Below, one piece after another: positions 1 to 13,214 of a stretch of 64,000 nucleotides of DNA (position 1 is the first letter of the stretch; each line of letters starts with the position of its first letter). The stretch comes from Macrostomum lignano (Eukaryota): contig NIVC01003267.1 of assembly GCA_002269645.1 (NCBI GenBank), positions 1-64,000 of the forward strand, in the 5' to 3' direction. The position numbers and the translations under genes are program-made. The notes beneath the pieces are model-generated. The model worked only from the letters and a program-made list of their open reading frames with translations, searched no databases and was not told the DNA's origin.

Positions 1-588
1 GTTCTCGACGAATCAAAACGTCTGATGTACCAGTTCTTCTATGGCATGAAGCAGCAGTACAAGGATAAAATGAAACTCTTGTACACCGACACAGACAGTT
101 TTATTATGGAAATTCAAACAGAAGACATTTATCAGGACATGCTGCAGCAAAAGATTTGTTTGACTTGTCTGAGTATGATGAATCTTCAGGACACAGAATG
201 GCGATCAAGTGTTTGACGCACTAACAAGAAAGTGATTGGGAAAATGAAGGACGAGATTGCTGGTGACATAATCACTGAATTCATTGGTTGAGAGCAAAGT
301 CCTATTTTGTAAAATGTGAGTCGTCAGACCCAATAAAAAAATCAAAGGGAATTCCGAAACGCGTCGTTAGGAAGGAAATTAATGAAGCTGAATACAGAGA
401 CGCCTTGAATTGCAACAAAAAGACATCACATGAGTTCTCAAAGCTACAATCAAAAACCATATTATTCACACAATTCGCAAAAGAAGATTGGGCTGTCAGG
501 TGCAGATAACAAGAGATTCATTTTTGATGACAATATCAACAGTCTACCGTTCGGGCACTGGAGGTTAGGTTTAGGAGGTGGAGATTAA
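1..588 (+). pseudogene. pPolB: Protein-primed family B DNA polymerase, C-terminal part, with several single-base frameshifts
   Basis: Motifs LLYTDTDSF, NKKVIGKMKDE, LRAKSY, KKSKGI and DNKRFI..SLPFGH are spread over different frames. Confidence 0.9.
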
Positions 589-661
589 GCTTAGGAGGTT
601 GGGTTTAGGAGGTGGAGGTTGGGTTTAGGTTTAAGATAAAGTTTAATAAACCTCATAAAAA

Positions 662-1063
662 ATGACAACAAATAACTTTCTCGAAGATTTGGCTAACGAA
701 CTGGAAATCCCAAACTTTAGAGGAATATTTATGAGGGACACTCTGCCTGATTTTCCTCTAAGAAAGGAATGCGGCATCATGAACTTTGACACCACCGATA
801 AGCCAGGATCTCATTGGGTTTGCTGGGTGATTGATCCCGATCGCAAGCACAAGTGTTATTACTTCGATAGCTATGGGACGGCAGTACCAGAAGAGCTAAG
901 AAATTATATGAAGGGGAAAAATAATAAAAAAATTTATCGCTCAGACTTTATTCTCCAAGGTCTTAGCAGTGATATTTGCGGTGAGCTGTGCATGACTGTT
1001 TTGTATGCAATGACCAAAACACGAAAGACCTACAAGGAAATTATTCTTGGCTGTGTTTCATAG
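662..1063 (+). CDS. Adenain/Ulp1-like cysteine maturation protease
   Basis: GSHWVCW (His), YYFDSYG (Asp) and Q..SDICGELC (Gln/Cys) in the order typical of Polinton proteases; 133 aa, open. Confidence 0.9.
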   Translation: MTTNNFLEDLANELEIPNFRGIFMRDTLPDFPLRKECGIMNFDTTDKPGSHWVCWVIDPDRKHKCYYFDSYGTAVPEELRNYMKGKNNKKIYRSDFILQGLSSDICGELCMTVLYAMTKTRKTYKEIILGCVS

Positions 1064-1066
1064 GGT

Positions 1067-1814
1067 TCATTGTGCATTCCTCGTCGTCCTTCTTGCCGAA
1101 TTTCTTGCCGAATTTTTCGCCGACTTTCTTTCCACATAATGTTGAAAAACTTTCTCGAGTTCATTTTTCAGCTGACTCATGTCATCAGTACCGACCATGT
1201 TCAAGTTCATTCGAATTGATTGTTCATAAAGATCCTGAATGGTTTTGAACTCATCCTCTGAAATGAACTTATCCTCGATTGCCCTTGAAATGTACCCTAT
1301 GATTGATGTGTGCACCCTTTCTCTTTTACTTGCTTCTCCTGTAGCTGCTTTAGTTTTTTTCGCCTGTTTCGCGCTACTGCTCCAGTAATTGCTGAAATAA
1401 GTCCACATGCAGCACCTACTGAACCAAGTGGAATTGCGATTGGGGCTGTGATGGCTGGCAACACTGAGACAGCTGCAGCAGATCCAGATAGAACAGACAC
1501 AGATCCTAGAATCATATTGCTGTAGTCGAAAAATTTACAGTGGTTGTCATAGCGCCTAATTTTCTTTGTGTTGTGGAAAATATTTTTTCAAGATCATCGC
1601 GCATTTTTTGAATCTCCACCAGTCGAAACTGTTGAGAGTTACAAGTAATGACGGGGTAAAGTCGGTCTGAATATTGAGGTGCATTCAGATTCGATGCATT
1701 CAGATTCGGTGCCAGGTTTTGTGTGTTCGAATTCGGTGCCATTGAGTTTGGTGCTGTCGGTATTTTAGGTTCAGCATATTGAGACTGATCGTATAGAGAA
1801 TTTTGTTGGGCCAT
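1067..1814 (-). pseudogene. Conserved Polinton membrane-active protein (GasderminX-like in adintovirus nomenclature), split by two frameshifts
   Basis: ORFs 1512-1814, 1297-1515 and 1067-1408 join into LYP..QQFRLVEI, a hydrophobic Gly/Ala hairpin (GSVSVLSGSAAAVSVLPAITAPIAIPLGSVGAACGLI) and ISRAIEDKFISEDEFKTI, matching the recalled family pattern. Confidence 0.7.
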
Positions 1815-2724
1815 TTTTTTCTCTAGAAAAAATAAAAAAAATTATAAAACTATCCGGTTGAAAGATCTGTTTTCTTTTTGATAATTCCATCTGCACCGCC
1901 GGTTGTCTAGGCGGCTCTCTTGACGCCGGAGGATCGCGAGTCCAGCAGGCAGCGGCTGGCGGCTGACGTTTGAGAGCGTGCCGGATTACTCCGTCGGGGT
2001 CCAGAGCTCCTTCTACTCGATCTGTAGACATGACCGGACGAGCAGCAGATTCTGCTTCATCAATAGCAATATCACGAAGATTGAGTGTTCTCTCCAGACG
2101 ATCAAGCCTCCTTATTATTTTACCCCAAGAGCTATACATTCCGTTTAGATAGCTACTGTGTGATACATCGTTTCTCTCTAATGCATCAAGTCTTTCTTTG
2201 ATTCGATCATGCAACGATGTTGACTGAGTCATGAACTCTTCTAAAGTATTGACTTTACCTGTGTTGGTTGCGACGTTTTCTTTAATTCTATCATGCAACG
2301 CTGTTGACTGGTTCATGAACTCTTCTAAATTATTTACTTTAGCTGTGTTTGTGAAAACTCCTCCTTCGAGAATACGCATCCGTCTATCAGTGGAATTTCC
2401 CAGAAGATTAACTGATGATCTCAAGCCGTTGATTAGCGAGACTATCGAAGTTATTTCTGACCTTAGTTCATTAGTTGCGTTTAACAACGGCGCATAAAGC
2501 TTATCACTTTCAAACTTCTGCCTAGCTACTTTAAGCCTGAGATCTTCCATGTTTATTTGCAACTGGTGCATGGAGCGCTCTAGGGCTTTCAGTCTGTTTT
2601 TATTCAGTTTGATCTCTGGGATCTTTTCGTCGCTGTTGATATATCGCCTGTCAAGGATGGATATCTGAGCTGATGTAAGAGCGCTGTTGCCAGAAATGGA
2701 TTCACCTGCAAAGTTTATCGACAT
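1771..2724 (-). CDS. Coiled-coil Polinton protein of unknown function (possible fibre or tape-like protein)
   Basis: 317-aa ORF with heptad periodicity and an internal duplication NT(A/G)KVN.LEEFM.QST.LHDRIKE; A-rich context before the ATG. Confidence 0.7.
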   Translation of the reverse strand: MSINFAGESISGNSALTSAQISILDRRYINSDEKIPEIKLNKNRLKALERSMHQLQINMEDLRLKVARQKFESDKLYAPLLNATNELRSEITSIVSLINGLRSSVNLLGNSTDRRMRILEGGVFTNTAKVNNLEEFMNQSTALHDRIKENVATNTGKVNTLEEFMTQSTSLHDRIKERLDALERNDVSHSSYLNGMYSSWGKIIRRLDRLERTLNLRDIAIDEAESAARPVMSTDRVEGALDPDGVIRHALKRQPPAAACWTRDPPASREPPRQPAVQMELSKRKQIFQPDSFIIFFIFSREKNGPTKFSIRSVSIC

Positions 2725-2740
2725 CTTTTAATAGCAAATT

Positions 2741-3541
2741 TTAAATTACAGTTCTTTTTTCTTTGCTGATAATCACAAACTGGTAAGGCTGATTCCACTT
2801 GTCATAGCAAAGATTAACGAATTCCTCTTGTGAAATCTTTCTGCTTGAGTTTTTTGTTGGATTTATGAAATAGGCAGGCGCAATGACCTCATTGTAAAAT
2901 CTTTTTAGCCTGTCCTGTGGAATGGTTGGAAACAGGAGAATCAGATTGCAGTTCCCACGAATTGTTTTGTTCGGGAGCTCGAACCAATTCTGTGCAATGT
3001 AAATTACATTGCAATTGTTATGTCGCCCTCTTGTAAAATAGTTTTCTATCTGCTTCTGTGGGCCTGTCATACAATCATCAAAGACGATCAAATGCTTTCT
3101 CCCCTTTTCTAGCTCATCTGGTTGGGGTAGAAGTTTGGTCTTTGGATCAGCCTGTGGATCTCCATAGGTGAACACTTTAATGTTCTGCCATTTTTCATTG
3201 TCTTTGAGGTGCTTTGCATATTCAGCAGCTACAATTTCAGGGTTACTGGGAAGGCTCATTTGGTTATTAAAACATGCAATAATGTCCTCTTTGTGCAGTT
3301 TGTTTTGCAATCCAGAAATCAACATTTTATACTCATCTTGATACAGTGTGGGAGAGTAGATGTGCAGAGTGTCATAGTCGATAAAGCCAGGTCTAAGAAG
3401 CATGTTAAAGACTCTGAATGTTTTACCTGAACCTGATGAACCAACAACAATGCATCTGAAGTGACTCGGAATTGACTCGTGATGAGAAAACTTAATCTGA
3501 TTACGCGTCCAGTGAGGATTGAAGTCGTTTGAAAAGTCCAT
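2741..3541 (-). CDS. A32/FtsK-like genome-packaging ATPase
   Basis: Walker A GSSGSGKT, Walker B LIVFDD and the FTRGRH..CNVIYIAQ motif; 266 aa, open. Confidence 0.95.
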   Translation of the reverse strand: MDFSNDFNPHWTRNQIKFSHHESIPSHFRCIVVGSSGSGKTFRVFNMLLRPGFIDYDTLHIYSPTLYQDEYKMLISGLQNKLHKEDIIACFNNQMSLPSNPEIVAAEYAKHLKDNEKWQNIKVFTYGDPQADPKTKLLPQPDELEKGRKHLIVFDDCMTGPQKQIENYFTRGRHNNCNVIYIAQNWFELPNKTIRGNCNLILLFPTIPQDRLKRFYNEVIAPAYFINPTKNSSRKISQEEFVNLCYDKWNQPYQFVIISKEKRTVI

Positions 3542-3580
3542 TTTTTCTATGATGAAAAAAAAATTTAAATAATAAATAAT

Positions 3581-3727
3581 TTAGATGTGTCATTTCGGGA
3601 CTTAGATGTGTCATTTTGGGACTTAGATGTGTCATTTTGGTACTTAATTGTGTCATTTCGGGACTTAGATGTGTCATTTCGGGACTTAGATGTGTCATTT
3701 TGGGACTTAGATGTGTCATTTCGGGAC
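3581..3727 (+). repeat. Seven copies of a 21-bp tandem repeat upstream of the ATPase gene
   Basis: Unit TTAGATGTGTCATTT(C/T)GGGAC starts at 3581, 3602, 3623, 3644, 3665, 3686 and 3707. Confidence 0.97.
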
Positions 3728-3754
3728 TAGTCTTGTACCCTCGGAAAGTACCCT

Positions 3755-4144
3755 TTAGTCAAATTTGAAACCACTTCCTTTTTTAATGCTAGCCCTCATC
3801 TTCTCATAGACTGCAGGGTCCACACTGTCTGGATTTGGGGCCAATGGAGCCAGCGGGGCCAGTGGAGGCTGAATCTCTTGTTTAGGTGTTACAGTATCCT
3901 TTATCTTTTTGGCTGCTGTGGCTACACTGCCAGCCGCTTCGGCAACGTTCTTGATGTTCTCTTTGTTCTCTCCAATGACCTTAAAAATCTTGGCCCCCTG
4001 AGCGATCAAATCGGCAAGGCCATTCCCAGAGCGTTCTTTTCTTGGATAGTGGCCTGCAGGGAAAAGTCCAGATCCGCGTTTAATGAGATTAAGTTCCTCT
4101 TTGTCGTAGTATTTGTCCACGTCTTTCTCAAAAATAATCGGCAT
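3755..4144 (-). CDS. Small basic putative core protein with GxG motifs
   Basis: Likely start MPIIFEK at 4144 after an A-run; contains KRGSGL, RSGNGL and C-terminal KKGSGFKFD. Confidence 0.7.
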   Translation of the reverse strand: MPIIFEKDVDKYYDKEELNLIKRGSGLFPAGHYPRKERSGNGLADLIAQGAKIFKVIGENKENIKNVAEAAGSVATAAKKIKDTVTPKQEIQPPLAPLAPLAPNPDSVDPAVYEKMRASIKKGSGFKFD

Positions 4145-4160
4145 TTTTACTTGAAATAAA

Positions 4161-5378
4161 TTATTTTTTGTTGAACCGCGAAAGCAGAAGCTCTCTCGCC
4201 CGTTTGTCAATATACTTCTTTTCCATCATTTTGTCCAGGATGTTGACAAATTCTTTTCTATTTTCATCTTTCATTCCGGTCTTTGCTGCTCCTAGAAGAA
4301 CCGCTACTCGCTTGTAGATTTCAGAAATTCCTTTTCCTGTTGAGGGCGGTTGGTCTTGGGGTTGTGGAGTTGGTTGGGCTTGTAGCTGCTGGGGAGGTGA
4401 TGCAAAAGACTGCTCACTTTCAGAGATGGAACTGTCATGTGGTGCCTGTCTTTGTTGAGGTGTGAAAACTCTTTGCTTGATTCTGTTCATTCGATCTGGA
4501 GAGTGTTGTTCTAAGTGTTGCCAGGCATCTGGGTGATCATTTTTATATTTAGCTACTTGAGTCGGATCTGCATTTTCCAGTTGCCTGAGTACTTCTGTGA
4601 AATGTTGCTGCTGCTGTGGTTGTGGTTGTTGTTGCTGTTGTTGTTCTAGATATTTTATGACTTCCGCCTGATCTGGCAAATCGAACCATTGTTTAAAGTG
4701 CTTGTACTTTTTGAATTTAGTCAGGTTGACACCGCTATCGTACATGTGTTTCAGAACTTCTGGGACCTTTAGTATTTCTATATCTCTAACAAGAGAAAAA
4801 GTCACTAGATTTCTGTAGTTCTTTAGCTGCTTCTCGGAGATTTTCTCTTGGTTCTTGGTCATAAAAGTCAGTAAGGTGTCTGTGAAAGGAATTTTCATAG
4901 TTTCTGAGCCTTTGACAACAGAAATATTTTCCTTATTTATGTCGATATAATATTCCACTGGTTCATTATAAATGTTTTTTCTCCACATACTTATTCCAAA
5001 TACATATTTCCCATCATGTTCGACACGCTCTACTGGTCCAAAAATATTATCTGTCACTTTTAGTTGCTGTTGTGGTTGTGATTGTTGTTGTGATTGTTGT
5101 GGTTGCGGTTGTGTCTGTGGTTGCGGCTGTATCTGTGGTGCTTCTGGAATTTTGCCCAAAACCTTTTGCACTTGGGTTTCCTGTATGTCGTCGATAGTTT
5201 CTTTGACCTGATCAATATTTTTCTTAGCTTCTCCATACCCGGGTTTATGAAACTCTGTGGCTGCTTGGACAAACTCATTGTAGGATTGTTGCTCCTTATT
5301 TATTAGCCCGGTAACTCGTTTCTCTGCTTGTGCCAGCTTCTCCAATTCAGATATTCGCTGTGTACTTTTTCGCTTCAT
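4161..5378 (-). CDS. Gln-rich Polinton protein with a conserved C-terminal helical domain (putative core protein)
   Basis: 405 aa, open. C-terminus GKGISEIYKRVAVLLGAAKTG..EFVNILDKMMEKKYI resembles the recalled Maverick motif (L..A..AGN..NE...ILD.L....I). Confidence 0.75.
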   Translation of the reverse strand: MKRKSTQRISELEKLAQAEKRVTGLINKEQQSYNEFVQAATEFHKPGYGEAKKNIDQVKETIDDIQETQVQKVLGKIPEAPQIQPQPQTQPQPQQSQQQSQPQQQLKVTDNIFGPVERVEHDGKYVFGISMWRKNIYNEPVEYYIDINKENISVVKGSETMKIPFTDTLLTFMTKNQEKISEKQLKNYRNLVTFSLVRDIEILKVPEVLKHMYDSGVNLTKFKKYKHFKQWFDLPDQAEVIKYLEQQQQQQPQPQQQQHFTEVLRQLENADPTQVAKYKNDHPDAWQHLEQHSPDRMNRIKQRVFTPQQRQAPHDSSISESEQSFASPPQQLQAQPTPQPQDQPPSTGKGISEIYKRVAVLLGAAKTGMKDENRKEFVNILDKMMEKKYIDKRARELLLSRFNKK

Positions 5379-5408
5379 TTCTTATTTTATTTTATTTTTA
5401 GTTAAAAA

Positions 5409-6695
5409 ATGAACGACCCACTGACACCAGTTTTCTACAAAATTAACAAGCCTATTTTGAGTGATGATAGCACAATCAAAGCGACTCAGGTAAGAGTTCC
5501 CAGTCAGGAAAATCAGAATGAAACTAATCTTGGTCCTGGCCAAACACTGACATTCACATACAATGGATGTTCGTCTTTGGTTAGTGTGCACAGTCTTAAG
5601 AGCGGCTTCCATATGACATTTCAATTCAAGACAAAAGGTGGTGCGGATGCGGCTCGTGCTAACGTTGACAAGCATGATGTGGATGTGGCTCTGATCAGTA
5701 ACTTTTGGGCGTACATGTTCAAGGAGTTTAGTGTATCGAATGGGAGCACTGAGTTGGAGCGAATCGCCAACTTTGGAATTGTCTATGACGCTCATTGTTT
5801 GATCGAGAATCCTGATTTTATTCAATTGGGAAGTGGTGCGGGTTTTATCGCAGATGAAAAAGAAGGAGACATCAATGACAGTGGCTATAAAAAGAGGAAG
5901 AAGAGATACAACTATGCATTGCAAGGTGCTGATGATGCTGCTAAGAACCCGCTGTATCGGTCTGTTGATGTATTTGTACCATTGAGATTCATGAGTGGAT
6001 TCTGTAATACATTTAATCGACTGACTAGTAACTTTAGCTACACATTTAGACTGACTAGAGATGATCGCAGTAGAGTGTTGTGGACTGGGGCGGACCACAC
6101 TGGGATGGCTGTGAAGCTAACCGGAATCGAGCTGTATTTGGAAGTCATTGAGCCAAAGACTGCACTAAAAGCAGACTATCTTAAGGCAATAGAGAAGGAC
6201 ATTGATGTTGCATACACGGCCTACATGTGTCGAGATGAGCGAAACGAAACTAGAACAAACATCTGCATCAAAGAGGGATCATGCAGCAATCCAAGGTATA
6301 TCATTATTAATATGAGAAACCCAAATAGCATTATACGCTACATGCATGGAGACGTGCGGTCCATTCAGCATGAAATCAGTGATAATCTTTACCCTGCACT
6401 GCCACAAAATGGAGATTTCAGTCAGAACAAGATTAGCAAATTTTACAGCGAGTTAGTCGACTTGGCTGTGAAAGAGAACAATGGAATTGCTATCACTGCT
6501 CTTCAATATGGAACTCTATATCCGATGTTTGGCGCTGATGTGTCTGCCAGACAAATGCCTACTGATAACAGCCCTGTGAATATCGTGACTAACATTGAAA
6601 GGACTGCCGCAACACCCGTGGACCTGTACATTGTCTATGCATTTGAGAGGAAGGTGAAGCTTAACATGATCAACAATTCATCCAGTAAAGTTTAA
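5409..6695 (+). CDS. MCP: Major capsid protein (double jelly-roll)
   Basis: 428-aa beta-rich ORF with LYPALPQNGDF..KFY and LYPMFGADVS motifs typical of Polinton MCP; adjacent to the minor capsid gene. Confidence 0.85.
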   Translation: MNDPLTPVFYKINKPILSDDSTIKATQVRVPSQENQNETNLGPGQTLTFTYNGCSSLVSVHSLKSGFHMTFQFKTKGGADAARANVDKHDVDVALISNFWAYMFKEFSVSNGSTELERIANFGIVYDAHCLIENPDFIQLGSGAGFIADEKEGDINDSGYKKRKKRYNYALQGADDAAKNPLYRSVDVFVPLRFMSGFCNTFNRLTSNFSYTFRLTRDDRSRVLWTGADHTGMAVKLTGIELYLEVIEPKTALKADYLKAIEKDIDVAYTAYMCRDERNETRTNICIKEGSCSNPRYIIINMRNPNSIIRYMHGDVRSIQHEISDNLYPALPQNGDFSQNKISKFYSELVDLAVKENNGIAITALQYGTLYPMFGADVSARQMPTDNSPVNIVTNIERTAATPVDLYIVYAFERKVKLNMINNSSSKV

Positions 6696-6718
6696 ATATT
6701 TTTTTGTGGGTGAAAAAA

Positions 6719-7582
6719 ATGGAAGCTATAGCCGAAAGACTAAACAACATTGTTTCACACTCTAAGGAGAGCATTCCTATTACAATAACCGGGCGAATTA
6801 ATGACTCAAACGGGATGTTTGTTGAAAAATTAGAGCAGGCGATTCGCCTGGATCCTGGCGCTAATTACCATGTCTATCTTAACGACTTCACTGGTTGGTC
6901 AAACGTTCCCAATGTGATGGCAGCAAATAATAAGTTTTATTACAAATGGAAAGGTGCAGCAGCAGACCCTGTGGTATTCCATGTGAGCACGCAAAGTGTG
7001 GATACCTACAATAACTTTCTAGAAAATGTCTTTACTAAGAGAGGCCATTTTGAGACACCTGATGCGAGTAAGCCAGAGAAGAAACTGTTCCCTGTCAAAC
7101 TAACCTATGATCTCACTGTAATGAGAGTGGTCATGCAAGTTCACAAAGATGCGGAGGTTGAGTTTAAAGATGACACTTGGTATAGGGAACTGGGATTCGA
7201 GAAGAAAGTTTATAAGGCAGAATCCGCGGCGCGGACCGCCACTCAAGCATCGGGGACCGTTAAAATGGCCCGGGAAAATGTAAGCGGTTTGTTCTTAGCA
7301 CCCAATATTGCAGACATTGTAAAGGGTTTGAATATTCTAATCAGAAGCAATCTCAGTCTTGATTGGGTATTTAAGGGAAAGCGAACGAATATTTTGTACA
7401 ACATCTCCAACTCTGTTGCTGGAGGACAGATGGTGGTAGAGAAACCAAATCCAGTGAAAAGAGTTGTATTGAGTAATAAGGAGATTCACGAGATTGTGCT
7501 ACAGTTTGAGACTGAAGATGGGATGGGCGTTGATTTTAATGGGGAAGAGTTTGTATTGACGTTGATCATTGAGAGAATGTGA
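6719..7582 (+). CDS. Minor capsid protein (penton, single jelly-roll)
   Basis: ATG at 6719; C-terminal EIVLQFETEDGMGVDFNGEEFVLTLII fits the Polinton penton pattern D.dG..vDF.Ge...l.l.i. Confidence 0.8.
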   Translation: MEAIAERLNNIVSHSKESIPITITGRINDSNGMFVEKLEQAIRLDPGANYHVYLNDFTGWSNVPNVMAANNKFYYKWKGAAADPVVFHVSTQSVDTYNNFLENVFTKRGHFETPDASKPEKKLFPVKLTYDLTVMRVVMQVHKDAEVEFKDDTWYRELGFEKKVYKAESAARTATQASGTVKMARENVSGLFLAPNIADIVKGLNILIRSNLSLDWVFKGKRTNILYNISNSVAGGQMVVEKPNPVKRVVLSNKEIHEIVLQFETEDGMGVDFNGEEFVLTLIIERM

Positions 7583-7850
7583 TTTTAAAATAACTTAATA
7601 TTTTATTTCAGTTCTATTTCGAATTTTTAGTATATTTTTTCTAGTCATATTACTTATTAATAGGCAACCTCACGCTTTTTAGACTGACCAAGCATTATTT
7701 TTTTTTCTAACCAGTATTTAGTGAAAGGATTGAAAACACAAAAGAAATCGGATACAAAAGGATAGTCTGTGCTCAGTCTATTGTTTTATTATGTCAAAAG
7801 TTGGTTAACTTCGCAAGTATTCGCACATAACAAACACAAGTCTGTCATTG

Positions 7851-7997
7851 GTCTTTCTCAGAAAAAAAGCTTTTTTTGCACAGTTGAATTCGTGCGAATT
7901 CCTGTTAAGACAGGAAATAGCGCGAATCCAACTGCGCACTAGTCTTTCTCAGAAAAAATGCTATTTTGCACAGTTGAATTCGTGCGAATTCCTGTTA
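7851..7997. repeat. Duplicated palindromic module with GAATTC-GTGC-GAATTC cores, forming a 60-bp imperfect hairpin
   Basis: GCACAGTTGAATTCGTGCGAATTCCTGT at 7878-7905 and 7968-7995; a diverged inverted copy at 7910-7937. Confidence 0.9.
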
Positions 7998-8000
7998 TGC

Positions 8001-8158
8001 ACATGATTTTTACGAACGTTCGTGAAAATCATGTAACCACTGAGAGCCGCTTTATGCTGCACATGATTTTTACGAAAGTTCGTAAAAATCATGTAACCAC
8101 TGAGAGCCGCTTTATGCTGCACATGATTTTTACGAACGTTCGTGAAAATCATGTAACC
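8001..8158. repeat. Three 60-bp tandem units, each with a 34-bp near-perfect palindrome; a fourth degenerate unit at 8398-8462
   Basis: ACATGATTTTTACGAA(C/A)GTTCGT(G/A)AAAATCATGT at 8001, 8061 and 8121; identical 26-bp linkers AACCACTGAGAGCCGCTTTATGCTGC. Confidence 0.97.
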
Positions 8159-8282
8159 AGTGGGAATCGAACCATGCGGGGCAGACTGAGACCGGTTTCG
8201 GGCTTGTTTGCCCTCGTCAGTCAGTCATAGCCACACGAGGTCGGCTCCACCTCTAGCCAGCTGAGTGGAACTGCTATTTATA
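8145..8282 (-). promoter_or_regulatory. Putative Pol III transcription unit around the hammerhead (TATA box, weak A box, perfect B box, T4 terminator)
   Basis: Minus strand: TATAAATA at 8282-8275, A-box-like TGGCTAGAGGTGG at 8259-8247, GGTTCGATTCC at 8173-8163 and TTTT at 8148-8145. Confidence 0.55.
8184..8226 (-). ncRNA. Type I hammerhead ribozyme with a minimal palindromic stem III
   Basis: Minus strand reads GACUGA-CUGACGA-GGGC-AAACAA-GCCC-GAA-ACCGGU-C-UCAGUC: complete catalytic core, perfect 6-bp stem I, perfect 4-bp stem II and a GUC cleavage triplet. Confidence 0.92.
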
Positions 8283-8798
8283 CGCCCTTGCACCAAGTCC
8301 TTGCCTTGCACATGGCGACATTTTCTAGTCCACCATGTGAGGAATTCGCGCCATGTTCAAATAGCTTTACTATCAGTAAGCTATCGCTTACAAATACGAG
8401 CCGCTTTATGCTGCACATGATTTTTACGAACGTTCGTCTAATTAATGTAACCAATAAGAGCCACTTTCGTGCGCTTTAAAAGATATATTTGCTTCAACCA
8501 ATAGATACAGCTTAAAGGACTACTGTAGACGAAAGAAACTTGCCAGTACAAATAAGAGTATATTACGAGTATTTTAACACACAGAATACGCTGAAAAATG
8601 TGAAGTAAAAGCCATCACTGTTTAACGTAGAGAATAATCATTCATAGTCAGTACTTCGTCTTCATCAGTTCAAGACCTCCGTTGTGGTCGCTTCGTCTTC
8701 TTCTATCTATGCCTAAAAAATTGTTTATTCGACTTGTATTGTTTGTTTGTACAAACTTTCTTTCAGAATTTGTTACAAAAAAAATGTTATGTATTTAC

Positions 8799-9652
8799 TT
8801 TCTTCATCTTCTCTTCATCTTTGTCTTCTTCTTCGGCCGCTTCGTCTTCTTCTATGCCTAAAAAATTGTTTATTCGACTTGTATTGTTTGTTTGTACAAA
8901 CTTTCTTTCAGAATTTGTAACAAAAATGTTATGTACTTACTTTCTTCATACCAACACCTGACATCCTTCTCATGTTGTTCATCCAGGGAAATACCCTCGA
9001 TTTGCATCTTCAATAAGTCCGCAAAGCGTTCATCGATTTTCGCCTTCTCTTCAATCGCCGATTTGTAGCGAAGCAGGGTTCCCATTGTGTAACTTGAAAA
9101 TATTAGACCTGGGTACATGATACAGAGAGAGTAAAATTTGTCGTAGTCTCCCACTGTTCGCTTGCTGATGTTGAAAGTGGTGGCGAGCTCTTCCACATTC
9201 ATTTTGTGCTTGTAGACCAAAACTTGAATTAAGCGCCCCTGCTCAAACTGCATCATGGCCTTCGCAGTTGACAGGTTCTCGATAGAATAGGTCAGCTTCT
9301 TAAACCTCGCTTCCAAGTCTACCTTTGTCGTTCCATTCAAATTCATGGCGACCAAGTTGAGACCTTCGGAAATTGCACCCAGAGACAACATTACACCACG
9401 ACTCTCATTCTCTTCCAGCTTCGCGTATATCCTCGCAATAACTCTCTCTCGCTCGCTCTCTTCCTTTTTCTTGGGAAGCGCCCTCTTCTTATCCGGAATA
9501 CCTTCAAGCTTTTCCAAGCTCTCCTGAAACCTTACCAACTCTTCTTCTTTCCAGCTGCTCAGTCTGCTTCCCATTGCCGACCTTTCTTTAGATGACAGCG
9601 TGACCGCCAGTTCAGCAATCGTTGCAATTCTTGTCTCTTTTGACATGGCCAT
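8799..9652 (-). CDS. Helix-turn-helix protein, probably spliced at its 3' end to an acidic tail exon
   Basis: Likely start MAMSKET at 9652; HTH-like MNVEELATTFNISKRTVGDY at 9202-9143; GTAAGT..TTTTTTAG intron at 8940-8858 followed by IEEDEAAEEEDKDEE. Unspliced, the ORF stops at 8870. Confidence 0.65.
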
Positions 9653-9782
9653 GATAAAAAGTATTCCTTTTATTGAAGAAAGTTTCGGTTTGACTTGCGG
9701 GGCGAGGTCCGGTGTGAATCGGTTGTTTTTATACCTTTGGTGGTATACGGTAGTACTCGGAAATCCCTGAATATTATCTATC

Positions 9783-9955
9783 GGATATCCAGAATATTCT
9801 AGAATATTCCCTTCTAGAAGGGAAACCCGCATGGCATGGGTTTTATTTTTAGATCTTACGTCTGCACTCTACAGGGTACAACCTTGTAATTGCCCATGCC
9901 ATGTGGGTTTTATTTTTAGATCTTGCGTCTGCACTCTACAGGGTACAACCTTGTA
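9783..9955. promoter_or_regulatory. Overlapping perfect palindromes plus a 52-bp direct duplication upstream of the HTH gene
   Basis: GGATATCC at 9783-9790, GAATATTCTAGAATATTC at 9792-9809 and TTCCCTTCTAGAAGGGAA at 9807-9824; duplicated 9837-9888 and 9904-9955. Confidence 0.6.
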
Positions 9956-10027
9956 CGAGCGTAGTTGCCAACTACAACTGTCTTATGACTTCAGCAAAGT
10001 TATAATAGCTGTTAAAATCATTAATGA

Positions 10028-10210
10028 CTATACTCCGTATTTAAGAAACCAGTGTCTTTGGAGAGCTAGATTAATATTAGGGACATTGATATGAACGTCG
10101 GGCCAATATTTTCTCATGTATTCGCTGCATTCAAGTTTGCATCGGTACTTGGATTTGTACAATGGATGAGGCTGAGTATAATAGGAACCTGGAGAGACAA
10201 CTGGAAACAT
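10028..10210 (-). CDS. Small 60-aa Polinton ORF of unknown function
   Basis: ATG preceded by the same A-run seen before other viral genes; aromatic- and basic-rich composition. Confidence 0.45.
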   Translation of the reverse strand: MFPVVSPGSYYTQPHPLYKSKYRCKLECSEYMRKYWPDVHINVPNINLALQRHWFLKYGV

Positions 10211-10379
10211 TTTTTTATTAAGAATTTAATTTTTTTTCAAAGGGTAAGGACCCTGGGTTAGGGGGTTTAAAGTCTTTGGGATCTGGTTTCGTGTTGCGAA
10301 TTGAATGTGGGGAGAAGAATGCAGATTATTTTCAGATTGTTTCTGGGTGGATGTTAGTGGATTATGTCAGTGTCAATGA

Positions 10380-10632
10380 GCATAACAGGTGTTAGTGGAC
10401 ACCTGTTATGCACTGATTCTGTCAGGGATAATATGGATGGATTTAATACGATTATGTTCGACGTTTTCGGAGCAAGTGCGACCCCTCCACTTTTTCATGA
10501 TTCTGTCGGGGATAATATGGATGGATTTAATGGGATTATGGAGGACGTTTTGTGAGCGAGTGCGACCCCCCTTTTTTTCTGATTCTGTCAGGGATAATAT
10601 GGATGGATTTAGGTGGATTATGGAGGACGTGA
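10380..10632. repeat. 13-bp-stem hairpin followed by three direct repeats of about 83 bp
   Basis: GCATAACAGGTGT-TAGTGG-ACACCTGTTATGC at 10380-10411; TGATTCTGTC(A/G)GGGATAATATGGATGGATTTA at 10414, 10498 and 10580. Confidence 0.9.
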
Positions 10633-13214
10633 AAAATTTTGTCCCAAAAGCCCCCTCATGCCTTCTACTCACGAGAGGTCTCTTTAGAATGAGACGCATT
10701 AAACCTTTGGTGGTACACATTCCGACGTTGAGAGAGAAGTCAGGACGTTGTACAAGCCTGCTTGAGCGTTTGCGCAAAGGACTGATGTGTATTCGTAAGA
10801 CGGTTCGAATTCCGTCTAATCGTATATTTGTGTTAATAAAAAGGAGCGGAAATAATTCGTTATCGTAGGAGACCTTGTCTCGCTCCGCTCGTTCGTTAGT
10901 TAATTTCATTTTCCCTCGTGCGCCCAGCTCTTTAGTAACTGTCTGGGTCTTCGAGAATTATGACCATACGCTCGTAGATAGTTCAATCACATGCGCAAAA
11001 GTTCATAGTTAAAATCCATATCAACAACAGTGTTCCATAGCGCTGTGTTATACAGCAGTCTTTTCGTCTGCGTACGCATCCATGTGCTTTTGCTATTTTA
11101 GCCGAAAAATTCGGCTCGTGTTTTGTCGAGTCCAGATTCGTCTCTTGACGGTATGTATTCATTACCGCCATCATCCATATTAAGAAAAATAATGAAGAAC
11201 ATTGCTGAAAAAACTGTGCATTCTTTTGTGATTAGTAAATAAAAAAAAAATACAAGTTTTTTTCATTTCTGTGGCTTTCATTAAAGCTAATACACTTGCA
11301 AGTTTCTCTTCCTCTCGTTTTTCAAATATATTTTATTCAGACTAATTAAATATTAAAATTTTTACCAAGGACGACTTAAGTCGTCCTTGATTTTTACATT
11401 ATTATCAATTATAATCATTGATGGTAACTTGACTTGACTCTTTCTGAAGTCAAATCAAGTCGCACTGACGGTTTTGCATCAAGTTTAAGAATTATCTTAT
11501 TGAATTTGAAGTAGTGCCTTTTTGATTTTTAGGTATTTCTCTTTTTTTCTGCTTACCTAATGAACCTCTCACTCCAGAGTTGCTCTGTTACATTTTTAAA
11601 AAATCTTTTTTTCAGTTTTCGCCTTCACTTCATTGTAAATTTTCACTTTTTGTTGAAGCAAGCAAGTAGCAATAGTTTTAAACTATTCATCTAATCATGT
11701 TTGTTCATTAGGCCTCCTATGTAAGAGGCTAAGGGTGCAGTCAATTTTAGCAAATTTTAATTTTGGCAAAAGCATATTATACTCATAGTTAGGGATTGCA
11801 AAATCCCATTTTTTGCAATCCTGGGATCCTGGGATTTAATCTCAGAATTTGGCCAATCCCAGGATTGAATCAGAAAATCAGAAAAATACAGATTCTTAAG
11901 CTTCTTGGTTGAAATTTGAAGGCAAAATATGCATTAAACATATTTTTGCTTCCATTTTTTATTGTTATGGACATAGTTGCCACACCTGCACTATTTTAGC
12001 ACTACTGTACTATTTTGTTTCAGCTGCACTACTGCACTATTATCTTTAAAATGCTGTCAATTCTATACTAAATGAGTTTTATAGTTAAATAGACTAAGTC
12101 AACCATGTTTCATTGTCATTGGACAACCTTTGTGGCTGCATCCTGACATGCTTTGTCCAAGAAGACATTGTTAATGAGACCAACTGTCTGTCAGACCTTG
12201 CTAATTATGCCAAGGAATGCTCTAATCAGTTGGATAATGCAAGTCTAATGATTGGTAGCATGAGACTATTGACAGACTATTGCCAATGAGACTATATGAG
12301 ACTATATGAGACCTATGAGACTATTGACAGACTATTGCCAATTGATTGTTACAATTGATTTTACAAAAGCATTTGCAATTTGTATTGTTAGTTAGTGCAA
12401 AGGCAGATCATATCTGCTGCTGCAGAACATATCCTCCAAGCTCTTTGCTTTGTTAGCCCTGACTAGGCCTACTTACTCAGAGAGGACTTTAACTTTGGTT
12501 GTGTCTATGAACTGTGTCAATGGTTGCCAAATCTATTAGCACCATCATCACAGTTGATGAGCCTAATGAGCTGCATCTTGAAGTCACCAGGTTCTGTGCC
12601 TCAAACTTGGAGCTCAAAAGGTCAAATCCTGAGAAGTTCTGGTTTTTAAAGTGAATATCCAACAACTTAACAAAGCAGTGGAACAAGCTTTCTGAGTTAA
12701 TGCTCAACTCTCTGCTCACTATTAAGACTTGGTGTAAGGCAAATTTGGCCACCACATACAGTCACAATTGAACCAAATAAACCTAATTGCCAGCAGCTTT
12801 TAAAGACTAAAGTAAAGCAGCTGATTGCGCTCAATTAGAACAATAGCAGCAGGAGGAGGATTTAGTGATGCAGCAGCAGACTGATGACGAGATTCAAAGA
12901 AAGGCACAAGAAGAACAACAGCAGCAAGAGGAGGATTTAGTGACACAGCAGCAGACTGTTAAAGAGATGTGAAGGAAGGTGCAAGAAATTCTGGCAGCTA
13001 CATCAAAGGTGGAAGCTGCATTACAAAAATGGCTTGTGACAGAGCATGTCCAGTCAGCCTAGGGGAGTCATTAGTCAGATTGTCATATTCCATTTTGCCA
13101 TATCAGATGACGAAGTGACTAGAAGCAAAGTAGCTTGAAAAATAATATGACAAAGTGACCAAATATTTAGTTATGCTAGATACTTTGTCATCAACCAATC
13201 AATCTGTGTGGGAG

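Follow-up and report, generated by a model that had tools for sequence, protein, structure and literature searches.

The hr regions of baculoviruses (the IE1 system) contain imperfect palindromes arranged as tandem units, the number of which varies. In the F SopB/sopC, RK2 KorB/OB and P1 ParB/parS systems, short inverted repeats are set in longer iterons adjoining the gene of a dimeric HTH protein, as described in PMC5016525. The EBV oriP has several palindrome copies bound by EBNA1, a viral protein whose N-terminal part is separate, and serves in episome tethering (PMC9813422). Type I hammerheads in tandem monomers of 150-450 bp are described for Schistosoma Sm-alpha and animal non-LTR retrozymes (PMC7229834), and flatworm repeats combining a polymerase III promoter with a hammerhead in PMC6765202. 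Palindromic repeats and small repeat arrays are also marked in one figure of mosaic small DNA viruses (preprint 10.64898/2026.10.13.758929). No description of a Polinton HTH-plus-palindrome module was found in a literature search at title and abstract level.

Here we analyze a window of 64,000 nucleotides from Macrostomum lignano, in which a dyad array adjoins a gene for an HTH protein. On balance we favor the reading that the dyads are likely the sites of the neighboring predicted dimer, that the gene and its downstream sites form a swappable near-end Polinton module, and that the ribozyme between the dyads is an inserted host retroelement. New here are the pairing of genes with sites throughout the family and the derivation of the ribozyme cassette from the host. 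With type Ia partition systems the module shares inverted repeats in iterons beside an HTH gene, and residues 130-219 of the predicted protein align with the DNA-binding domains of KorB, ParB, VirB and SopB (Z 5.6-7.2). In contrast to those systems, neither the ParB N-terminal CTPase (ParBc) domain nor a ParA-type motor was found, and the element is a eukaryotic nuclear one with introns and a heat-shock promoter. The fold is unrelated to that of EBNA1; the Polinton integrates and has a putative protein-primed polymerase, and no chromatin-binding domain was identified in the HTH protein. Unlike the dispersed hr clusters, the array occupies one locus per element (in three whole elements) and is tied to one accessory gene. 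The module would thus function like a known kind without being a member of it, as it has no ParB CTPase domain, dispersed hr clusters or promoter operator.

Polinton setting of the locus

The start of the window lies inside a Polinton, the features of which are as follows.

662-1063, protease gene (Peptidase_C5, Pfam)
3541-2741, A32 packaging ATPase gene (Pox_A32, Pfam)
5409-6695, double-jelly-roll capsid gene (Pfam DJR-like, E 1e-4, below the cut-off)
6719-7582, plus strand, minor capsid (penton-like) gene converging on the array; the ORF after the capsid gene, called penton-like from its position
10040-10669, unstranded, right terminal inverted repeat, ending CTACT at 10669 and matching both ends of full-length copies

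We take positions 1-560, together with the long upstream ORFs, to be the polymerase end, judging by their location and by sequence motifs. An rve integrase gene is present in a sister copy and was matched in full-length copies of the same Polinton family, so that the Polinton/Maverick gene set (capsid, packaging ATPase, protease and rve integrase) was found across the window and its sister copies. Long terminal inverted repeats beginning AGTAG and 6-bp target duplications were present in all five full-length copies examined. Within the right terminal repeat lie a 32-bp hairpin (10380-10411) and 84-bp tandem repeats of variable number (10413-10630), and a perfect 24-bp palindrome is located beyond the element end (11366-11389). 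Remnants of the penton 3' end were also seen adjoining the terminal repeat of the opposite end (L064:8004-8060, L066:7343-7399 and L056), which shows that subterminal segments have been swapped between the two Polinton ends.

Organization of the dyad array

The array is positioned 3' of both flanking genes, the penton-like gene and the HTH gene.

8001-8034, unstranded, dyad unit 1, one arm mismatch; perfect three-unit nGAAn word at 8013-8027
8061-8094, unstranded, dyad unit 2, perfect 16-bp arms
8121-8154, unstranded, dyad unit 3, one arm mismatch; T4 at 8145-8148 on the minus strand
8415-8448, unstranded, dyad unit 4, right arm imperfect; CCAAT word next to it at 8449-8458
8439-9652, minus strand, HTH gene and transcript; main coding exon from 9652, GT-AG intron at about 8858-8940 (83 bases), second skip at about 8711-8798

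A sequence-only reading of the window had described three 60-bp dyad units and a degenerate fourth, and position, TRF and shuffles all bear this description out. Units 1-3, each of 34 bp, repeat with a 60-bp period (TRF, 96% matches). An arm length of 16 pairs, as observed here, was not reached when the 10.7-kb element was shuffled 30 times (13 pairs at most). The arm mismatch of units 1 and 3 is a G at position 24. The form of unit 4 recurs in L052-L056 and is thus a shared variant rather than decay private to the window copy. The same reading had placed the 60-bp spacing close to six helical turns; it amounts to 5.71 turns, and related arrays are spaced by 40, 66, 70, 84 and 119 bp, so helical phasing was dropped. 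A loxP-like recombinase site (13-8-13) was likewise abandoned, given the 36-bp dyads of families B and C and the rve integrase of the element, as was a Helitron 3' end, since the other families have no such end.

The pattern CATGATTTT-N12-22-AAAATCATG occurs at 103 sites in the 764-Mb genome (reversed control, 0), and all of them fall in 29 of the 32 Polinton loci checked, 98 in the window's family and five in family B. One dyad cluster per element was found in three whole elements; type I dyads are confined to the array in two of them, and the third has one stray match. The number of units per array ranges from 1 to 24. Such variation would be expected of a near-neutral hairpin minisatellite, whose symmetry is self-repaired by template switching, whose linkage to the gene is passive and which expands by slippage like the other repeats of the element. 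Other local duplications of 67, 84, 90 and 145 bp, two independent breakpoints inside a left arm, and arms conserved no better than the spacer (12/32 variable positions versus 3/26, from 75 units at 21 loci) are in line with this explanation. The dyad has no copies in the host genome, which speaks against it, and the comparison among families below bears on it further.

Dyads accompany HTH genes in other Polinton families

Sixty loci were surveyed, 59 of which had an HTH match; the family of the window is named A. In most families the dyads lie 40-800 bp behind the HTH domain, wherever in the element this is located. In families B (40% protein identity) and C (53%) the domain is followed, 210-490 bp on, by two 36-bp dyads that keep the same outer arms. 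The flanks in B and C give no blastn match to the window, and the dyad is the only conserved island among A, B and C; this conservation, and the presence in many paralogue families of a dyad on the same side of the gene, argue against a minisatellite, which we regard as improbable. In these dyads two positions change on both sides, an observation of little weight because it comes from five related sequences. Family D has 4-7 copies of TTTACGAAGCTTCGTAAA, with the same inner core as the window dyads, and clade II genes carry dyads of the CTG..CAG type (protein tree split 92/97). Extra half-sites in direct orientation often accompany the clade II dyads and were seen in families G, J, N and P, an arrangement that suits a protein and not a hairpin. 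At L033, L036, L104 and L121 there are outer arms alone or nothing, several of these loci being broken or rearranged. Dyads beat shuffles in six of 18 family representatives, and in 1/18 gene-body controls.

A prediction of dyad type was fixed beforehand and applied to 20 new loci and five further ones. In the first coding, which included a flank filter, the predicted type was found at 8/22 clade II domains and the other type at 0/22, with 5/26 in upstream windows. The second coding, devised after the outcome of the first, demanded six paired bases and had no flank filter; it placed dyads within 600 bp downstream of 15 of the 22 clade II domains and in none of 26 gene bodies, the 22 rows representing about eight families and not 22 independent cases. 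Under this coding no clade II domain had the other dyad type, and three more showed imperfect dyads by eye. The clade I hold-outs numbered four, all fragments, with one weak match. Five family D arrays were found by DNA alone, two with a remnant of the family D gene and none with another HTH gene; all five adjoin the terminal repeat of one or the other element end. Across these comparisons most paralogues have a dyad of their own behind the gene, and its core changes with the protein clade, a pattern in support of a module of gene plus binding sites. The argument for co-evolution is limited, because the clades represent one deep split and plain linkage would also make a neighboring word follow the gene tree.

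Predicted fold and dimer of the HTH protein

A profile search returned 119 relative clusters at E 0.001 or better, and the protein family is wider than this genome. Pfam gave no common family among the relatives (no match in 93 relatives at E 0.01), and the HTH matches that it returned were all sub-threshold. PHROGs and PDB sequence searches yielded nothing informative, and no relative was found in viral contigs. For one homologue, the Atlas annotation was HTH_3 (0.93) and DUF3102 (0.89), the latter a lead only.

The deep-alignment model, built from 93 sequences, reached a pLDDT of 88.4; a shallow model (pLDDT 73) had weak ParB and Raf1 matches. In the model, helices are placed at residues 153-160 and 164-179, with 164-179 as the recognition helix, and the N-terminal 50 residues form three helices, for which one structural match (Rho N-terminal, Z 5.0) was obtained while the other searches were blank. 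The structural matches included DeoR (Z 8.1, rmsd 2.2, 56 aligned) and SorC (Z 7.5, rmsd 1.6, 47 aligned), and over longer stretches KorB (Z 7.2, rmsd 3.2, 80 aligned) and P1 ParB (Z 7.2, rmsd 3.8, 80 aligned). The Z values of the ParB family tie with those of other HTH proteins, and values of 7-8 fall within what common helical arrangements give. No Foldseek match had an E below 0.001, the ParB-type matches being at E 0.5 or worse. The protein is described here as a predicted HTH fold with ParB/KorB-like flanking helices.

Homodimer prediction scored 0.79, and the best of three controls 0.00; contacts agreed by at least 65%, with pLDDT of at least 73. The same mark was reached by 21/30 solved microbial dimers and 0/23 monomers, and by 17/29 solved eukaryotic dimers and 0/30 monomers. 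The predicted interface is an antiparallel pair of the helix at about residues 110-149, through which a homodimer would present two recognition helices. The earlier proposal of a dimeric viral HTH regulator that binds the dyads thus gains a predicted HTH fold, a predicted homodimer and the linkage of dyad and gene in other Polinton families. From the models and the sequence patterns together, we consider it probable that the HTH protein binds the dyads sequence-specifically.

Transcript and promoter of the HTH gene

Contigs from all four public runs, which come from four studies, contain the 83-base GT-AG skip; the RNA nature of these runs is the tool's guess, not on record, and the evidence consists of assembled contigs. 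The ORF product of 9652-8870, for which structure prediction had been suggested, does have a predicted HTH fold; the 3' end of the gene is spliced, so that the mRNA does not keep this frame to its end. In a 145-bp duplication there (8686-8949), one intron and one small exon are repeated, and C4948 has this segment in single copy. The transcript contigs reach 8439-8459, at unit 4, with little coverage of units 1-3.

Contigs that end at unit 4, and dyads situated at the 3' end of the gene, would be compatible with a role as RNA hairpins, by which the 3' end of the HTH mRNA would be set or protected, and the units do fold at -13 to -17 kcal/mol. However, the gene-proximal unit 4 folds at -3.3 on the mRNA strand and the units of family D at -4.6; the strand favored by a T-G arm mismatch is that of the mRNA in family B and the opposite one in family A, and family C has an inverted pair. 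We give the hairpin explanation little credence. A DNA-binding protein is favored over it because symmetry is kept through divergence, half-sites occur in direct orientation, the hairpins are weak or on the wrong strand, and the dyads match the protein clades.

9726-9810, minus strand, HTH gene promoter; TATA at 9726-9733, perfect heat-shock elements at 9791-9810

The heat-shock consensus is nGAAnnTTCnnGAAn. Heat-shock elements precede the HTH gene in seven of 14 family representatives, including L105, L108, L113, L120, L127 and L131 and excluding families B, C, E, F and K. Perfect heat-shock words number four in positions 1-11000 of the window (two in the array and two in the promoter) versus one in the other 53 kb. 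This clustering raises the alternative that the array is an enhancer for the host heat-shock factor, since units 1 and 3 owe their perfect three-unit nGAAn word to the G variant, which is the commonest unit. Yet the downstream word is present in only one of the 14 representatives, family B shares the G without the word, and the first base of the pentamers is C or T, which is less favored in heat-shock elements. As a general explanation it is very unlikely, and a role of the heat-shock factor is possible for the window family alone.

No dyad was found in the promoter or upstream region of the HTH gene. A phage-type operator, as had been envisaged, does not agree with this layout, in which the dyads are 3' of both flanking genes and the promoter holds heat-shock elements.

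Gene-less copies and the possible role of the array

Four of the best 25 array-plus-cassette loci have the HTH gene beside the array (two of them at one insertion site), and 21 do not. In about 20 gene-less loci the left arm of unit 4 is joined to the subterminal region, and three gene-less full-length copies gave no HTH match in the stretches examined. The gene-less copies have 14 distinct right flanks among the 17 listed, plus C869, and occupy at least 15 distinct sites, which indicates that the HTH gene is not needed in cis. The expectation that HTH gene, array and hammerhead would co-occur in related Polintons thus held in part: gene and dyad are linked across families, while the gene adjoins the array in only 4/25 loci of this family and the cassette is absent beside the dyads of the other families.

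The HTH protein might bind the dyads for local transcription alone, either damping its own gene by looping or a 3' polymerase block, or insulating it from the converging penton gene. The position of the dyads behind the domain in most families, whatever the place in the element, agrees with such local control, as do best fold matches that include the repressors DeoR, SorC and KorB, and the end of the transcript contigs at unit 4 is a weak hint in the same direction. The promoter without a dyad, and arrays that persist and grow to 24 units in gene-less copies, are harder to accommodate. Local self-regulation is a close rival of the role proposed next, although as the sole function we judge it rather unlikely.

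By analogy with SopB/sopC, ParB/parS or EBNA1/oriP, we tentatively propose that the bound array may work as a cis-acting handle on the excised element, a role which we hold to be a fair way short of probable. Under stress, the heat-shock promoter would switch the HTH gene on; the HTH dimer would bind the dyad array with its two recognition helices; and the bound array could act in retention of the excised element or in licensing it for replication or packaging. Gene-less copies would be served in trans by the HTH protein, and the number of units would shift by slippage or unequal exchange. The handle role is favored because the sites adjoin the termini and outlast the gene. A further and more speculative step, which we doubt, would be that animal Polintons carry plasmid-style centromere modules, each with a stress-induced ParB-like dimer and a cognate array; such modules would form co-diversifying specificity groups, be exchanged between element ends and be used in trans by copies that lack the gene. 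If true, the centromere-module reading would directly document an extrachromosomal phase, as well as competition among Polinton families, in an animal germ line. The many natural gene-and-site pairs in one flatworm allow a simple swap-controlled binding test bearing on Polinton regulation and extrachromosomal persistence.

Host origin of the hammerhead cassette

8155-8392, minus strand, captured host retroelement piece; TATA at 8275-8282, A-box at 8247-8259, type I hammerhead at about 8184-8226, B-box at 8163-8173

The ribozyme cassette was found between units 3 and 4 with its T4 inside palindrome 3, just as the sequence-only reading had it. The type I hammerhead core with stems I-III, and the A-box, B-box and TATA-like words on the minus strand, were read from sequence motifs; neither Rfam nor ARAGORN made a call in the cassette. 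Positions 8159-8392 are about 89-91% identical to 390-392-bp tandem monomers and to solo copies at non-Polinton loci. The tandem monomers are present in 2-4 copies in C201 (371782-373167), C3053 and C4118, and the solo copies at five further non-Polinton loci. All eight host loci have the same start base as the Polinton copy and the same short tail at the end. A 5-bp duplication, AATGT, borders the cassette on both sides in L056 and repeats the end of a dyad unit. On the basis of these host tandem and solo copies, the common start and tail, and the duplication in L056, comparison of the copies shows the cassette to be a hammerhead retroelement from the host (Sm-alpha or non-LTR retrozyme kind), inserted into a pre-existing array. 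The likeness to that kind consists in a motif-read type I hammerhead in 390-392-bp tandem monomers; the difference is that a single truncated monomer, devoid of its original terminator, has here become fixed in a Polinton family.

Ten bases that carry the T4 of the host copies are missing from the Polinton copies, and the first minus-strand T4 past the B-box is the one within dyad 3 (8145-8148). This next T-run may now terminate the cassette RNA, and the T4 of palindrome 3 would thus be borrowed. The dyads had been regarded as operators that switch the cassette, in keeping with their position on both sides of it, the only nearby T-run being theirs, and a cassette identity of 88-100% at all 25 loci of the window's Polinton family. 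Control of this kind is hardly credible now that the cassette is recognized as an insertion with a target duplication whose host copies have their own terminator; in the other Polinton families, the dyads were found without a cassette next to them. It is possible that a bound protein incidentally interferes with the cassette.

As read from motifs, the host repeat is a polymerase III unit of tRNA-like design in which the hammerhead lies between A-box and B-box; it forms a small family and is fixed throughout one Polinton family, which recalls the adenovirus VA RNA genes. A 56-bp match to the hammerhead only (89%) adjoins host gene exons at L050:1050-1105 and L051:1116-1171.

A relic dyad of a second paralogue family

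7863-7997, unstranded, relic dyad of another paralogue family; 62-bp hairpin at 7877-7938, core at 7899-7916, partial second copy at 7953-7997

The hairpin at 7877-7938 is the dyad of clade II family H. The same hairpin is located directly 3' of a clade II HTH paralogue converging on the penton gene in L119, L120 and L133. The family H gene in the same slot at these three loci, together with the relic hairpin here, indicates that the slot has held two modules in turn. Separately, a 5-kb deleted element (L074:22-4960, C1391) retains both terminal repeats, a dyad of the unit 4 type and a clade II HTH gene, and L074 also has a gene of 125 residues that may be distantly related, with the same fold.
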